Shown piece by piece: positions 619-6,314 of a stretch of DNA of 44,824 nucleotides. The notes under the pieces are model-generated. The model searched no databases, was not told the origin of the DNA, and saw nothing but the letters and a program-made list of their open reading frames with translations. Position numbers and translations under genes: made by a program. The DNA lies in assembly GCA_964644695.1 (NCBI GenBank), contig CAZXWN010000004.1:124001-168824 (forward strand). The letters run 5' to 3'. The first letter of the stretch is position 1; every line of letters starts with the position of its first letter. The stretch is from an uncultured bacterium. GTDB lineage: Bacteria > UBP4 > UBA4092.

Positions 619-658
619 AAGTAATATCTATTATCGCATAGATGCTAATGCAATCTAT

Positions 659-1225
659 TCAGGGTGCTACCATACGAAACCAATCTCTTATTACTTGCTT
701 TATACGTGCGTGCTCCTCATCACTGATGACTGACATATGACATATATTATTACGTAGATGCGAAATATGCTTTGCCTCTTCTATAAGAGACTTATCTCTC
801 ACACTTTCGGCAAAATAGTCTTTCCATAATGCATTCATAATAGCTACCAATTGACTATATGTCAGTAAACGCTCTTTTTCTCTGCCTGTTATTGCCATCC
901 AACTCTTCTGATTTTCTATAGTTTCACTTTTACGAATGTCATCAATAATATTTTCTGGTATTATTTTCCACCATTCGTTCTTTGCTTTTGATGACAATTC
1001 TGCAACAACAAACTCACGCAAATAATTCTCAAAAACAAAAAAAAGTTTATATGATTCCGCAGCCTTTGTAGCATCGCGAACACTGTCCGGTAATAATTCA
1101 GCTAAATTAATTGTATTGGAAAGATAAAGGGGTATATCGTTTGTAACATTTACATCTTCAGATATTTTTTTATTAGCTATTTGGCCTAAAGTCAAAAACA
1201 GTGCCAGTTTTTCGGCATTAATCAT
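659..1225 (-). CDS. Swt1-like HEPN domain protein (putative RNase effector)
   Basis: Pattern YxLFFVFENYLREFV...WW...LTYSQLVAIM...W..YF, plus an intact HEPN Rx4H motif (RNNICH). Confidence 0.75.
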   Translation of the reverse strand: MINAEKLALFLTLGQIANKKISEDVNVTNDIPLYLSNTINLAELLPDSVRDATKAAESYKLFFVFENYLREFVVAELSSKAKNEWWKIIPENIIDDIRKSETIENQKSWMAITGREKERLLTYSQLVAIMNALWKDYFAESVRDKSLIEEAKHISHLRNNICHMSVISDEEHARIKQVIRDWFRMVAP

Positions 1226-1824
1226 TTAAATACCTTTCGGATTGCACTAAAAATATTCAAATATGTTTCTTCTGAACAATTGCTTGGCAAATGTACCTGA
1301 ATGTTAAAGTGAAAGTCCGTTGTAAATCCATCGTTGCTAGGAGCAACGGCCAATTTATCAGCAAACACCTCATCCCTTTCTTCTTCCTCTTTATCGCTGT
1401 TGTACGAAAAGTCTGCCAATGGTACTAAGGCCTTAAAAGTCCCTAGTATTTTGCTTACTTGGGCACTATCTCCACCGCTAACTTGTGAAACAATACCCTT
1501 CATTTCCTCATTACCTAGAACATGTATATTTTCATTAGCTGCATATAAATCTCTGTATGCTTCCTTTATAGCGTCAGCCATCACTTTTCTAGAAGCAGTA
1601 TCATTTTTGTATAATTTATATCTTTCCGTTGGCTTACTTGTAGTATCCAAGAACCCTAACGATCGCAAAAGTGAAATCAATGCTCTATCCGCAGTGCTTT
1701 TAAGCCCTATGGTATGGGATAAAAATTTATGAGTAAAAGCATCCGGAATCTTTGCTGATTTCATTTTTTGGAACAAAGCACCGACATTTTTATATGATGG
1801 TAGGTATGGAATTTCGTTTTTCAT
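1222..1824 (-). CDS. DUF5343-like protein
   Basis: N-terminal PYLPSY...PDAFTHKFL..TIGLKS..DR.LI.LL.SLGFLD...PTERY and C-terminal FHFNIQVHLP...Y..IF..I. ATGA overlap with the HEPN gene. Confidence 0.7.
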   Translation of the reverse strand: MKNEIPYLPSYKNVGALFQKMKSAKIPDAFTHKFLSHTIGLKSTADRALISLLRSLGFLDTTSKPTERYKLYKNDTASRKVMADAIKEAYRDLYAANENIHVLGNEEMKGIVSQVSGGDSAQVSKILGTFKALVPLADFSYNSDKEEEERDEVFADKLAVAPSNDGFTTDFHFNIQVHLPSNCSEETYLNIFSAIRKVFK

Positions 1825-2602
1825 GCAGTTTCTCCTTATTTATCTGTTTTTTTGTTAATTGATACAACTCTAAGGCATCATGTCTTTTATAAAAATCAGC
1901 GATATCATCGTCCTCATATTTATCCCCCAGGAATTTCTTCAATGAAACAATAAATAAAACATTAAGACCAATATATTTATTAACTACATGTTTATCATTT
2001 TTATAATTCGCCCACCATTGGATAATTTTCTTTAAATAACCGAAATATTGACCAATATAATCATTCTTGAACTCCATTGGCCAAAGAAGTGCTTTACTGC
2101 CATTTATATCATGAAAAAAATCTTTATTTTTCTCATTTAATTCATCAAACATTTTTTCCGTAATATAGATAGTGGGAATGTCATGTTCTTTATCACGATT
2201 GTCAGCATATTTTTTAGCTTCATCAAATTCGATTGATAAATAATATTCTTTTTTTTCATAATTAATTGTCACAGGGAATCTTTTAGCTTCTCCGTAAGAA
2301 GCTCCTCCTCTAGCAAGTAAAGGATGTACATCTGCTGCTTCATAAAGGAGTTCCCTGAATCCAAAAATATCGACCATTAATTGTTTTAAATATTTAATAA
2401 ACTCATCCTGATTTTCAGAAACTATATATAGAGAATCAAACACAAATAAGGAATTTTCTAGCGCCTGAGAGTACTGTAAACTATTAATACTGAATAGTGC
2501 ATAAAAATCATCTAACAATTCAAAAGTTCTTTCCTTATTTTTATTTTCTAATAAAGAACTAATTCCTAATAAATCAATTACTGCCACATATTTCATGCAC
2601 AT
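1790..2602 (-). CDS. Divergent class III nucleotide (adenylate/guanylate) cyclase-like protein
   Basis: Motifs YVAVIDLLG (first Asp), FDS (second Asp) and LLARGGASYG. RBS GAGGAG at 2610-2615 favours a start at 2602 rather than 2638. Confidence 0.55.
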   Translation of the reverse strand: MCMKYVAVIDLLGISSLLENKNKERTFELLDDFYALFSINSLQYSQALENSLFVFDSLYIVSENQDEFIKYLKQLMVDIFGFRELLYEAADVHPLLARGGASYGEAKRFPVTINYEKKEYYLSIEFDEAKKYADNRDKEHDIPTIYITEKMFDELNEKNKDFFHDINGSKALLWPMEFKNDYIGQYFGYLKKIIQWWANYKNDKHVVNKYIGLNVLFIVSLKKFLGDKYEDDDIADFYKRHDALELYQLTKKQINKEKLHEKRNSIPTII

Positions 2603-2816
2603 TTTATTACTCCTCAGAGATAATATAGATGAGTGCATGATAAATCACCAATTAATTATAGTCAATGAGTTGTTTTTCAATGCAACCAAATAAAGTAAAC
2701 CATATTCAGAAAATTAATAAATATTATCCATTAATCAAATCGTGCATTCGATTATTATTCACAAACGCCCACCTTTACCGATTTGTTTAGTCCCCCTTGC
2801 AAAACCAATCCATATT

Positions 2817-2862
2817 GGATAATAATACCTATATATAACAATATGTATAGGTATATTTATCC
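2817..2862. promoter_or_regulatory. Inverted-repeat operator upstream of abiEi (probable autoregulation site)
   Basis: GGATAAtaATACCTATATATA-acaa-TATGTATAGGTATatTTATCC directly precedes the ATG at 2866. A -35-like TTGCAA lies at 2797-2802. Confidence 0.65.
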
Positions 2863-2865
2863 AAC

Positions 2866-3486
2866 ATGAAACAAAAAGAAGACATATCCGCCACATCAAA
2901 GGCTAAAGTGATCCTGCAGAGAATGAGGTCTCCTGTTCTCAGAACCTCAGATATTCTGGAACAGGGCATTCATGTCCGAACTCTGTACCAACTTCGGGAT
3001 GATGGTTTTCTGGAACAAATGTCCCGGGGAGTATATCGCCTTCAGGACCAGGATACACTGGATAATCCAGACTGGGTAATTGTCTTCACTCGAATTCCTC
3101 AAGCAGTCATTTGCCTGGTTTCCGCACTTTCATTCCATGAGATAACCACGCAAATACCACATGAGGTATCTATTGCCCTGATGAAAGGGGCAGAATCGCC
3201 CCGTCTGAAGTTTCCTCCCCTGAAAGTCCACAGATTTTCCGGTCCAGCATTCCTTGAAGGAATTGAGGAATATCGTGTTAATGGGATTCCCGTCAGAGTC
3301 TATAATCCAGAAAAGACACTGGCAGACTGCTTTAAGTTTCGAAATCAACTGGGAATGGATATTGTCATGGAAGCCCTTAAACTTTATAAAACCAGAAAGA
3401 CATTTGTACCTGATAAACTCCTTAAATATGCCCGAATCTGTCGCGTAGAGAATGTCATGAGACCCTATCTGGAGTCGATACTTTGA
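2866..3486 (+). CDS. abiEi: Type IV TA antitoxin, AbiEi family
   Basis: Winged-helix N-terminus (LEQMSRGVYRL), ICLVSALSFHEITTQIP and YNPEKTLADCFKFRN. Overlaps the next gene by 4 nt. Confidence 0.88.
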   Translation: MKQKEDISATSKAKVILQRMRSPVLRTSDILEQGIHVRTLYQLRDDGFLEQMSRGVYRLQDQDTLDNPDWVIVFTRIPQAVICLVSALSFHEITTQIPHEVSIALMKGAESPRLKFPPLKVHRFSGPAFLEGIEEYRVNGIPVRVYNPEKTLADCFKFRNQLGMDIVMEALKLYKTRKTFVPDKLLKYARICRVENVMRPYLESIL

Positions 3487-4373
3487 TAAAAGACATCTCT
3501 GCATCCATCAGGCAAAAACTGCTTAACCAATCCCGCCACGACAGAAGGCCCTTCAATGAGTTACTTCAATACTATGCTATGGAGCGGTTCTTATATCGTC
3601 TTTCAAAGTCAAAGCATCCAAATTCCTATATCTTAAAAGGCGCACTATTATTACGAGTCTGGGAAGCGCCTCTCAATCGTCCAACAAAAGATATCGATTT
3701 ATTAGGCAAAACCCGTAATACGGAGTCCAATATTCAAAAGCAGTTTAGCGATATCTTGACGACATCCGTTGAACCAGATGGACTAATATTTGACATAGAT
3801 TCTATTGAAACAGAACGAATTTCTGAAGATGCTGATTATGAGGGTATTCGAGTCCGTTTCAAAGGATCTCTTGGGACCGCTAGAGTTTCATTACAAGTAG
3901 ATATTGGATTTAGTGACGTTATCTATCCTGAACCAATAAACATATCTTTTCCAACTCTCTTTAACTCAGAAAATCCAGTTCTTTTGTCATATACACAGGA
4001 AAGTGTGATTGCCGAGAAATTTGAAGCAATTGTTAAATTGGGTGAGTTAAACAGTCGCATGAAAGACTTTTATGACATTTGGGTGTTGTCCCGAAATTTT
4101 GATTATGACGGACTAAACCTCTCCGAAGCCATAAAGCTTACCTTTCAGAAAAGAAAAACAGCAGTACCTGAATCCGTTACATCATTTAGTAAATCATTTA
4201 TTGATGCTAAACAGGTACAATGGACAGCCTTTAGAAACCGTATTCCCCTTGAATTTATCCCTCCCTCATTTGCGGATATCATCAAAGATATTAAAGAATT
4301 TATCCTTCCGATATTAACCCATGATCCAACCTCATTAATTTGGAAAGCCCCCGGTCCGTGGACTCCTAAATAA
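3483..4373 (+). CDS. abiEii: Type IV TA toxin, AbiEii/AbiGii nucleotidyltransferase
   Basis: Motifs LKGALL, RPTKDIDL, AEKFEA and SRMKDFYD. Confidence 0.9.
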   Translation: MIKDISASIRQKLLNQSRHDRRPFNELLQYYAMERFLYRLSKSKHPNSYILKGALLLRVWEAPLNRPTKDIDLLGKTRNTESNIQKQFSDILTTSVEPDGLIFDIDSIETERISEDADYEGIRVRFKGSLGTARVSLQVDIGFSDVIYPEPINISFPTLFNSENPVLLSYTQESVIAEKFEAIVKLGELNSRMKDFYDIWVLSRNFDYDGLNLSEAIKLTFQKRKTAVPESVTSFSKSFIDAKQVQWTAFRNRIPLEFIPPSFADIIKDIKEFILPILTHDPTSLIWKAPGPWTPK

Positions 4374-4407
4374 TAATACGAATAATTCACTCATCCGTTT
4401 TATCTAC

Positions 4408-4441
4408 AAAAAAAGAAGGGGCGTCCCTGATGGGACGCCCC
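4408..4441 (-). terminator. Rho-independent terminator of glmS
   Basis: 10-bp stem GGGGCGTCCC/GGGACGCCCC with a 4-nt loop, followed by a U-rich tract on the minus strand. Confidence 0.85.
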
Positions 4442-4484
4442 GATTAATATGGATTTTGTTAAATATTACTAAACGCCACTGTCT

Positions 4485-6314
4485 TTATTCGACGGTAACG
4501 GACTTAGCCAGGTTTCTGGGCTGATCAACATCACAGCCGCGTTTAACCGCGACATGATAGGAGAACAGCTGAAGCGGGATCTGAACCAGAATCGGTGAGA
4601 CGAACTCTTCACACTTCGGAATATAGATGACGGATTCGGCATGAGCCTTGATGTTTTCGTCACCTTCGGTAGCCACAGCCACGATACGACCGTTTCTGGC
4701 GCGGATTTCCTGAATGTTGGAGACCATCTTGTCATACACCGCAGACTGGGTGCAGACGCAGATAACCGGGAGACTATCATCCACGAGGGCAATCGGACCG
4801 TGCTTCATTTCGCCGGCGGCATACCCTTCAGCATGAATGTAAGAAATTTCTTTCAGTTTCAGAGCACCTTCGAGGGCGCTTGGATAGTTATAGGAACGAC
4901 CGAGATACAGGGCACTGGTGGCCTTGTAATACTTGTCGGTGCAATCCAGAATGGACTGCTGGTCTGCCAATTGGGCCTTGACCTGTTCGGGTAACTGACG
5001 AAGAGCAGCAATCATGTTCTTCCGGGTCTCCGCAGAAAGTGTACCACGGATGGCACCCAGATACAGGGTGAAGAGAATGAATGCTGTTACCTGTGAGGTA
5101 TAAGCTTTGGTAGAAGCAACGCCAATTTCCGGGCCGGCATTGGTGTAAATGACACCGTCTGAGTCACGGGCGATTGAGGAACCCACGACATTACAGATAG
5201 ACACGACTTTGGAGCCGCAGCGTTTGGCTTCACGGAGACCCGCCAGTGTATCAGCGGTTTCACCCGACTGAGTAACGGTCATGACGAGAGTGTCTTTGTC
5301 CACCATCGGGCTGCGATAACGGAATTCAGAGGCCAGATCCACTTCAACCGGGATACGGACAAACTGTTCCAACAGATAACGGCCGACCATACCAGCGTGG
5401 TAAGCAGTACCACAGGAGATAATGACGATTTTCTTGATGGACTTTAATTCAGCATCAGACATCTTCATATCTTCAAGCTGAATGCTGTCGAAGTCTTTGG
5501 AGAAACGGCCCAGGAGGGTGTTGGCAATAACGGTGGGCTGTTCGTTGATTTCTTTGAGCATGAAGTGGGGATATCCACCCTTTTCGGCGGCATTGGCATC
5601 CCAATCAATGTAATGTTCTTCCTTTTGGAGAACATTGCCATTGAGGTCAGTCACTACGACTTTGTCGCGAGTCAGGGTAATAACTTCATGTTCATCCAGG
5701 TAAATGACCCGGCGGGTATATTTCAGGATGGCGGGAACATCGGAACCAATGAAGTTTTCACCGTCACCAAGACCGATAATCAATGGGCTACCACAACGGG
5801 CGGCCACGAGTTTATCCGGCTCATCAACGCACATGACGCCAAGAGCATATGCACCTTCTACTTCTTTCAGGGCGTTGCGGACAGCTTCTTCGAGGTTACC
5901 TTTGTAATGTTTACCCACCAAATGGGCAGCCACTTCAGTGTCAGTCTGGGATTTGAAGACATGACCTTCCGCCAGCATCTGGGCTTTGAGGGACTGGTAA
6001 TTTTCGATGATACCGTTGTGGACAACCACGATTTTTCCGGAGTTGTCAGCATGGGGGTGAGAATTTACTTCAGAGGGGATACCATGTGTGGCCCAACGAG
6101 TGTGTCCAATCCCGCAACTTCCCGGAATAGGCTCTTCAGCCAGGCTCTGATCTAACACTTTCAGCTTGCCGACTCTTTTACGAACGACCAGTTTGCCATC
6201 AGAAATGACAGCCACACCGGCTGAGTCATACCCACGATATTCAAGACGATGTAAACCGTCCATAATAATCGGAGTCGCATCGGTTTTACCGATATATCCA
6301 ACAATTCCGCACAT
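4485..6314 (-). CDS. glmS: Glutamine-fructose-6-phosphate aminotransferase
   Basis: MCGIVG start, GHTRWATHG, SQSGET-like TQSGET, and C-terminal DQPRNLAKSVTVE. Confidence 0.99.
   Translation of the reverse strand: MCGIVGYIGKTDATPIIMDGLHRLEYRGYDSAGVAVISDGKLVVRKRVGKLKVLDQSLAEEPIPGSCGIGHTRWATHGIPSEVNSHPHADNSGKIVVVHNGIIENYQSLKAQMLAEGHVFKSQTDTEVAAHLVGKHYKGNLEEAVRNALKEVEGAYALGVMCVDEPDKLVAARCGSPLIIGLGDGENFIGSDVPAILKYTRRVIYLDEHEVITLTRDKVVVTDLNGNVLQKEEHYIDWDANAAEKGGYPHFMLKEINEQPTVIANTLLGRFSKDFDSIQLEDMKMSDAELKSIKKIVIISCGTAYHAGMVGRYLLEQFVRIPVEVDLASEFRYRSPMVDKDTLVMTVTQSGETADTLAGLREAKRCGSKVVSICNVVGSSIARDSDGVIYTNAGPEIGVASTKAYTSQVTAFILFTLYLGAIRGTLSAETRKNMIAALRQLPEQVKAQLADQQSILDCTDKYYKATSALYLGRSYNYPSALEGALKLKEISYIHAEGYAAGEMKHGPIALVDDSLPVICVCTQSAVYDKMVSNIQEIRARNGRIVAVATEGDENIKAHAESVIYIPKCEEFVSPILVQIPLQLFSYHVAVKRGCDVDQPRNLAKSVTVE

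Follow-up and report, generated by a model that had tools for sequence, protein, structure and literature searches.

We analysed a 44,824-nucleotide (nt) stretch of DNA from an uncultured bacterium (the window), in which three co-oriented genes on the minus strand encode a cyclase-like protein (g1), a DUF5343 protein (g2) and a Swt1-like HEPN protein (g3). The locus is probably a composite of two independent units: a toxin-antitoxin (TA)-like RNase module of the PDC-M34 type, formed by g2 and g3, abutted by an independent cyclase-like cargo gene, g1. A sequence-only reading of the same DNA had put the three genes forward as a candidate undescribed anti-phage system, in which a signal generator, an adaptor and an RNase could act as a relay. 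Its description of the locus was accurate: the genes are co-oriented and AT-rich, overlap by 35 nt and by an ATGA, and lie beside an AbiE pair, and the motifs that it pointed out in g1 (VIDLLG, FDS and RGG.SYG) and in g3 (RNNICH) are all present. Its domain calls were likewise correct, as Pfam shows for DUF5343 and HEPN_Swt1 and as profile and structure comparisons show for the cyclase-like g1. The novelty of the system and its recurrence as a three-gene unit did not survive our comparisons.

The 200-amino-acid (aa) product of g2 (1222..1824) matches Pfam DUF5343 above the curated cut-off (E = 3.1e-41), and the 188-aa product of g3 (659..1225), the predicted RNase effector or toxin, matches HEPN_Swt1 (E = 1.7e-13; 51.3 bits vs a gathering cut-off of 27.5). 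Both are recognised by PADLOC models of a single system: g2 as component PDC-M34A (PDLC04589; E = 1.6e-50, residues 1-197 of 200) and g3 as component PDC-M34B (PDLC04592; E = 1.8e-24, residues 19-187 of 188). A Flavobacterium pair matches the same two models at 2.6e-84 and 2.1e-81. The two genes in the window are adjacent, co-oriented and in A-then-B order, and they share this order, the co-orientation and a tight coupling with the archetypal pairs; they differ from these in that only the window pair has an overlapping cyclase-like gene upstream. PDC-M34 is one of 145 PADLOC “phage defence candidates” (PDC), which the source preprint describes as explicitly untested and as picked for lying embedded within known defence systems (bioRxiv 10.1101/2024.01.29.577857). 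In the literature that we searched, no paper named DUF5343, PDC-M34, PF17278 or PF18731. The g2-g3 pair is not undescribed, being already catalogued, if only as a candidate. Within the catalogued type it represents a divergent branch, its identity to 17 other pairs being 27-36% for A and 14-24% for B. The PADLOC check that the sequence-only reading had proposed thus placed g2, g3 and AbiE, and left g1 without a match at E <= 1.

Of 401 diverse genomes, 10 gave a DUF5343 match, which passed the cut-off in 8, and the DUF5343-HEPN pair accordingly occurs in ~2% of them. A scan of species-representative genomes, queried with a three-sequence DUF5343 alignment, retrieved 20 DUF5343 loci from Bacteroidota, Bacillota, Pseudomonadota, Actinomycetota and one archaeon. 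A g3 homologue lies directly downstream of DUF5343 in 19 of these 20 loci (phmmer), and in the 20th, the archaeal one, a 181-aa open reading frame (ORF) with an RNECAH motif takes that place. The A-then-B order is kept in 20/20 loci, and the stop-to-start gap is <=10 nt, or the genes overlap, in 19/20. The sole locus without tight DUF5343-HEPN coupling is L042 (5995-6636), where the DUF5343 protein is devoid of the conserved C-terminal tail, sits 113 nt from its HEPN partner and may be frameshifted. Identity matrices of the DUF5343 and HEPN proteins are closely correlated across 18 loci (Mantel r 0.96, with 0/5000 permutations as high), which shows, at the level of sequence comparison, joint inheritance of the two proteins and not binding. 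The RNNICH motif of g3 fits the HEPN Rx4-6H catalytic motif, and its R158 and H163 are invariant in 22/22 aligned HEPN partners.

The genes around the DUF5343-HEPN pair vary by locus, both upstream and downstream. Among the neighbours are housekeeping genes (RF-1, FtsH, ribonucleotide reductase, IlvD) and defence genes (Mrr with a McrB-like gene, a type II restriction endonuclease, a TIR effector, NERD and a PDC-M55A/NsnB-like ATPase). In a Mucilaginibacter locus (L032, 3231-5917), the pair is directly preceded by genes for a WYL/WCX regulator and an RtcB RNA ligase; damage by the predicted RNase could thus be coupled there with repair by the RNA ligase. A second set of 9 DUF5343 loci includes two without a recognised HEPN. 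One locus, L019 (4477-5815), encodes a 283-aa DUF5343 protein followed by a Hypoth_Ymh protein (PF09509), which we take to belong to a HEPN-type family, and another, L020 (7672-8802), has a truncated DUF5343 directly ahead of an MNT/HepT pair. The closest relative of g2, P0005 (46% identity), is a 357-aa gene call and the sole longer protein that suggested a fused DUF5343 form; we rejected that form, as the first ~157 residues look like an over-extended ORF call. Plasmids searched with g2 gave no match.

The two sets of loci, which have one locus in common, amount to 28 distinct DUF5343 loci. A g1-like gene was found in none of them (0/28) by phmmer, by the family hidden Markov model (HMM) or by motif inspection of the 8 unannotated co-oriented ORFs that lie near DUF5343 in six loci. 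In all 20 loci of the first set, the DUF5343 ORF begins past the end of the upstream ORF, with 0 overlaps. Conversely, neither DUF5343 nor a Swt1-like HEPN occurs within ~6-7 kilobases (kb) of the g1-like gene in any of 12 g1-like loci (0/12), and no other blastp cluster is common to more than two of these. Among the sampled loci, a cyclase-like gene beside a DUF5343-HEPN pair is seen solely in the window's genome. In these loci, recurrence of the trio as a unit is thus unsupported in both directions: the neighbourhood survey suggested by the sequence-only reading bears out the co-occurrence of DUF5343 with Swt1-like HEPN and finds none with a cyclase-like gene.

The g1-like proteins form a rare family of solitary proteins of 245-330 aa. 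Their genes are sporadic: among 351 Bacteroidota genomes 10 have one, as does 1 of 9 from a second phylum, and a diverse set of 401 genomes includes two carriers, one of them the window's own genome; plasmids and phages searched with g1 gave no match. At the closest g1-like locus (L043, 2466-7411), the g1-like gene is followed by Abi_alpha (PADLOC PDC-S47, 1.7e-30) and then by a 984-aa KAP/PifA-like NTPase, with transposase fragments upstream, a defence-island setting. At L062 the g1-like gene lies among envelope and housekeeping genes. In genome G554 (L066/L076, 6615-7439) it is split by one TAA into ORFs of 94 aa and 170 aa, and is probably a decaying copy.

The product of g1 itself (1790..2602, 270 aa) has an N-terminal class III cyclase-like palm, at about residues 1-165, followed by a helical C-terminal region. 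The palm carries VIDLLG (D10), FDS (D56) and an RGGASYG strand. Among 1.84 billion representatives, the only homologues retrieved were P0002 (6.7e-7, 31% identity) and P0003 (1.4e-4); P0004, also considered as a relative, was discarded as a repeat artefact. A word-index search with g1 returned the self-match only, and a metagenome scan with the g1-family alignment returned no match, while one with P0002 returned one locus. Pfam, NCBIfam, PHROGs and PADLOC gave nothing significant on g1. The cyclase family PF00211 matched none of g1, P0002 and P0003 at E <= 10, so that none reaches its Pfam gathering threshold, and g1-family profiles had 0 matches to PDB sequences at E <= 10. An AlphaFold2 model of g1 from a 3-sequence alignment reached a mean predicted local distance difference test (pLDDT) score of 41.4 and was set aside for fold searches. 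Since this model is too poor, the palm fold of g1 is read through its homologues.

These homologues point consistently to the class III cyclases. The ESM Atlas model of P0002 (predicted template-modelling score 0.82) matches a Guanylate_cyc cluster with a template-modelling (TM) score of 0.52 by query length and 0.76 by cyclase length, in an alignment of 181 residues over P0002 residues 1-221. Three clusters of hypothetical proteins of ~320 aa also match this model, at TM 0.81-0.85. The PADLOC PycC model gives weak matches to P0002 (1.5e-4) and to a 68%-identical relative (4.9e-3). In a search of 929 ORFs with an HMM of four g1-family members, the ORFs of class III cyclases, 12 in number, ranked 1, 2, 3, 4, 6, 8, 11, 25, 30, 40, 47 and 63 of 470 scored (Mann-Whitney P 1.3e-8), and the best stretches lay inside the cyclase domain in 12/12 cases, colinear with the domain order. 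Extending the family to 14 sequences (the four members and 10 more from Bacteroidota) and aligning it with 12 cyclase domains by hhalign gave a probability of 88.4% (E 2.8e-6) over 148 columns that span the whole domain. These deeper alignments supersede an early hhalign comparison of a 3-sequence g1 alignment with 4 PycC-like proteins, which gave 3.1% probability.

Four residues, D10, G13, D56 and G99, are invariant in 14/14 members of the g1 family. Of these, D10 and D56 fall on the two metal-binding Asp, which are invariant as D32 and D76 among the aligned cyclases. In class III cyclases, an Asn and an Arg of helix 4 (the Arg of the “AARL” helix) have transition-state and catalytic roles. 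Neither is conserved in the g1 family: the cyclase-invariant N153 aligns to a variable column, and the Arg position is K, Y, L or V. The g1 protein thus belongs, as a divergent member, to a palm family of class III cyclase type; its two-Asp metal site is intact, and it may be enzymatically active. With PF00211 cyclases the family shares colinearity over ~150 residues, the aligned Asp dyad, an RxGxxxG strand and the match of a homologue's model; it differs from them in its own C-terminal helical domain and in consisting of solitary proteins. We regard it as an undescribed, sporadic branch of the class III cyclase superfamily. The sequence-only reading had allowed that g1 might turn out to have no cyclase fold, which the homologues argue against. 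It had also warned that the cyclase motifs are divergent and that g1 could be inactive or an independent cargo gene: the Asp pair is retained and the Asn and Arg are not, and independent cargo is the better-supported reading.

The layout of the three genes resembles that of an operon. The g1 ORF is open from 2638 (1790-2638 at full extent, 282 aa), and its probable start is 2602 or 2596, with GAGGAG 7 nt ahead of the ATG at 2602. It overlaps g2 by 35 nt, so that the AAGGAG and ATG of g2 sit within the last codons of g1, and g2 overlaps g3 by 4 nt (ATGA). A consensus scan found a promoter-like site upstream of g1 on the minus strand, TTGACT-17-TATCAT (2637..2665, read from 2665 to 2637), which covers the upstream g1 ATG at 2638. 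It is a candidate promoter for g1-g2-g3, and we treat it as a lead only, because the region had 17 such sites vs a chance expectation of 14.7. Neither the scan nor the sequence itself revealed a convincing terminator or a distinct promoter at the g1-g2 junction, and the three genes probably share one transcript. All three are poor in GC (g1 0.284, g2 0.365, g3 0.342); the flanking genes reach 0.47-0.50, and the window as a whole 0.430. The GC content at third codon positions is lower in g1 (0.225) than in g2 (0.303) and g3 (0.265), which we counted in favour of a composite origin. In contigs from three other sludge or wastewater runs, only pieces of 151-449 nt match, none of them spanning a gene junction.

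The genes lie between an rsmA/ksgA-like methyltransferase gene (1-618) and a glmS-like aminotransferase gene (4485-6314), names that were read from the translations alone. In one sister genome (G002), which is of the same family, ~135 bp separate the rsmA-like gene from the glmS-like one (L059, 8120-8256), and in another (G001) an nrdD gene and a radical S-adenosylmethionine activase gene are placed between them (L058, 4478-7944). The junction thus differs in all three genomes of the family, being empty, occupied by the nrdD pair, or occupied by g1-g3 and AbiE. Since G002 is empty and G001 has other genes at this junction, 619..4484 (~3.9 kb) is a lineage-specific insertion, which holds g1, the PDC-M34-type pair and AbiE. 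Its ends show no convincing direct repeats. DUF5343 was found in none of the other four genomes of the phylum (5 genomes in the sample).

The remainder of the insertion is an AbiE system on the plus strand, oriented divergently from g1-g3. It consists of an AbiEi antitoxin gene (2866..3486; Pfam AbiEi_4 1.4e-7, PADLOC AbiEi 4.7e-74) and an AbiEii nucleotidyltransferase toxin gene (3483..4373; Pfam AbiEii 2.6e-45, PADLOC AbiEii 1.3e-99), which overlap by 4 nt as expected of the type. A near-perfect palindrome at 2811..2868 (27-nt arms, 85% complementary, with a 4-nt spacer) ends at the AbiEi start codon and resembles an operator for AbiEi autoregulation. Searches for RNA genes returned 0 Rfam families and 0 tRNAs in the window.

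How g2 and g3 might work together is suggested by the structure of g2. An AlphaFold2 model of g2, built from a 20-sequence alignment, is confident (pLDDT 80.8). Residues ~11-80 form three helices and a hairpin, a winged-helix-like arrangement. A helical subdomain follows as far as residue 140, and beyond it come an acidic linker that is disordered (143-169) and, at the C-terminus, a conserved tail of one strand and one helix (consensus HYNIQIHLPETRD..VYDAIFKSLKEHLL). Foldseek of this model against the PDB gave nothing at E <= 0.001. The best VIA-align matches are the winged helices of MarR/HpaR, TubR and IclR (Z 5-6.4, residues 11-80), and the whole-domain matches are BrxA (Z 5.7 over 142 residues) and the FokI recognition domain (Z 5.6); as these Z values are below the reliability bar of 8, we read them as resemblance only. 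The N-terminal domain of DUF5343 therefore resembles MarR/IclR regulators and BrxA, an accessory DNA-binding protein of bacteriophage exclusion (BREX) systems, in fold only. Many antitoxins are built in this way, with a DNA-binding-like head that a flexible linker joins to a short tail of conserved sequence, and we infer from this likeness that DUF5343 restrains the HEPN RNase.

On this basis, g2 and g3 would act as a TA or abortive-infection pair. The HEPN protein would be an Rx4H endoribonuclease that the DUF5343 protein holds inactive, possibly while also repressing the operon. Infection, or loss of the partner, would free the HEPN RNase, and cleavage of RNA would halt growth. The second unit, g1, would have come to sit directly upstream of g2, most likely as a separate cargo or defence gene and not as a required component. 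There is a precedent for such an arrangement in two independent defence systems that share one operon and are synergistic with no cross-activation (PMC13069673).

Among described systems, the nearest to the g2-g3 pair beyond PDC-M34 are MNT-HEPN (MntA-HepT) and the HEPN abortive-infection systems, which likewise have a small Rx4H HEPN gene right after a small, translationally coupled partner gene. As with HEPN TA systems, the DUF5343-HEPN pair is widespread and sporadic and sometimes lies in defence islands. It is nevertheless not an MNT-HEPN system, as its partner is the winged-helix-like DUF5343 and its HEPN is Swt1-like instead of HepT. Pycsar offers the closest parallel for g1, whose family is remotely homologous to cyclase domains of the class III/PycC type and has both metal-binding Asp, and which is arranged, as if in an operon, with an effector of a cell-killing kind. 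The locus differs from Pycsar in several respects, however. PycC is among the PADLOC families that g1 does not match (0 at E <= 1), its family does not conserve the Asn and Arg, and the effector in the window is a HEPN RNase with a conserved partner of its own. Moreover, no effector with a cNMP (cyclic nucleotide monophosphate)-binding domain was found: Pfam on g2 and g3 (E <= 1) shows no cNMP-binding, CARF or SAVED domain, and the window's contig has no cNMP-binding match. The window's own genome (G000) holds two cNMP-binding ORFs (PF00027, 4.4e-16 and 7.3e-12), on contigs C2 and C5. It has no match to the PycC model at E <= 1e-5, a model that matched ordinary class III cyclases in 259 of 401 genomes, and g1 is thus the sole cyclase-like gene detected there with the queries used.

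Several points weigh against two independent units. The 35-nt overlap puts the ribosome-binding site and start of g2 within the 3' end of g1, as in a functionally integrated operon, and it is not simply a read-through of a lost stop, since the g1 C-terminus aligns near the ends of its homologues (NSI motif). The g1-like gene in the L043 defence island suggests that g1 may combine, as a module, with different effectors. At 28 DUF5343 loci and 12 g1-like loci the sample is limited, and because sequence searches pick up g1-like proteins poorly, trios in which the cyclase-like gene is more divergent could have gone unnoticed. Both the phage defence by PDC-M34 and the neutralising of HEPN through binding by DUF5343 are, furthermore, presumed. 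These points lend some weight to an integrated three-gene system, in which the g1 cyclase would make a second messenger, on infection or constitutively, that DUF5343 senses to switch on the HEPN RNase. Such a system would explain the two overlaps and the one promoter-like site upstream of g1, the cyclase-type palm with its invariant metal-binding Asp, the AT-richness of all three genes in one insertion beside AbiE, the g1 homologue in a defence island and the weak match of P0002 to PycC. We nonetheless think it unlikely: the trio is missing from every other sampled locus of either kind, the pair evidently suffices by itself in many phyla, PADLOC gives no match for g1 at E <= 1, and the g1 family does not conserve the class III Asn and Arg. 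Of the relay put forward by the sequence-only reading, the cyclase-like and HEPN identities stand; the adaptor as a nucleotide sensor is unsupported, as no known nucleotide-sensor domain was detected in g2 or g3 and the DUF5343 model looks like a winged helix with a helical subdomain. It seems similarly improbable to us that g1 is an active, non-canonical palm cyclase or nucleotidyltransferase newly recruited as a third controlling component, its product being read by DUF5343 or the HEPN RNase being modified directly.

A role for g1 that needs no diffusible signal is also conceivable by analogy. MntA covalently modifies and silences the HepT toxin, and g1 might in the same way be a nucleotidyltransferase that covalently modifies and silences the HEPN toxin, or else an extra sensor subunit that docks on DUF5343. 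The two-carboxylate palm, with its nucleoside triphosphate-using chemistry and without the cyclase-specific Asn and Arg, would suit such a role, as would the position of g1 directly upstream of the toxin module and the MNT/HepT pair that adjoins a truncated DUF5343 in L020. We consider this highly unlikely, as MNT proteins have a Pol-beta fold that differs from the palm, and the DUF5343-HEPN pair occurs without g1 in every other locus examined, so that neutralisation of the toxin does not require g1. The pair could, on the other hand, be a selfish addiction or stress-responsive TA module that plays no part against phages; g1 would then be a regulatory or metabolic palm enzyme unrelated to the pair, and the AT-rich block horizontally acquired cargo. 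Many of the 20 pair loci do lie among housekeeping genes, as do g1-like genes (L062), neither g1 nor g2 was found on plasmids nor g1 in phages, and PDC systems are untested candidates chosen by their embedding within known defence systems (bioRxiv 10.1101/2024.01.29.577857). Against this, several pair loci adjoin defence genes, the window pair adjoins AbiE, and HEPN Rx4H proteins are common abortive-infection effectors (PMC3710099). An addiction module without a defence role is accordingly doubtful in our view, and a PDC-M34-type RNase module with g1 as separate cargo remains the reading that we favour.

For the DUF5343-HEPN pair, this reading provides a first mechanistic proposal, in which a winged-helix, antitoxin-like protein with a conserved tail would restrain an Rx4H RNase. 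The g1 family, for its part, keeps the metal site of the class III cyclases and not the canonical Asn and Arg. The window itself is a natural construct with both units in one operon, and it can show whether this amounts to shared transcription or to the start of cooperation. If g1 has indeed been recruited as a controlling component, the locus would be a new three-gene signalling defence system caught forming from two independent units.

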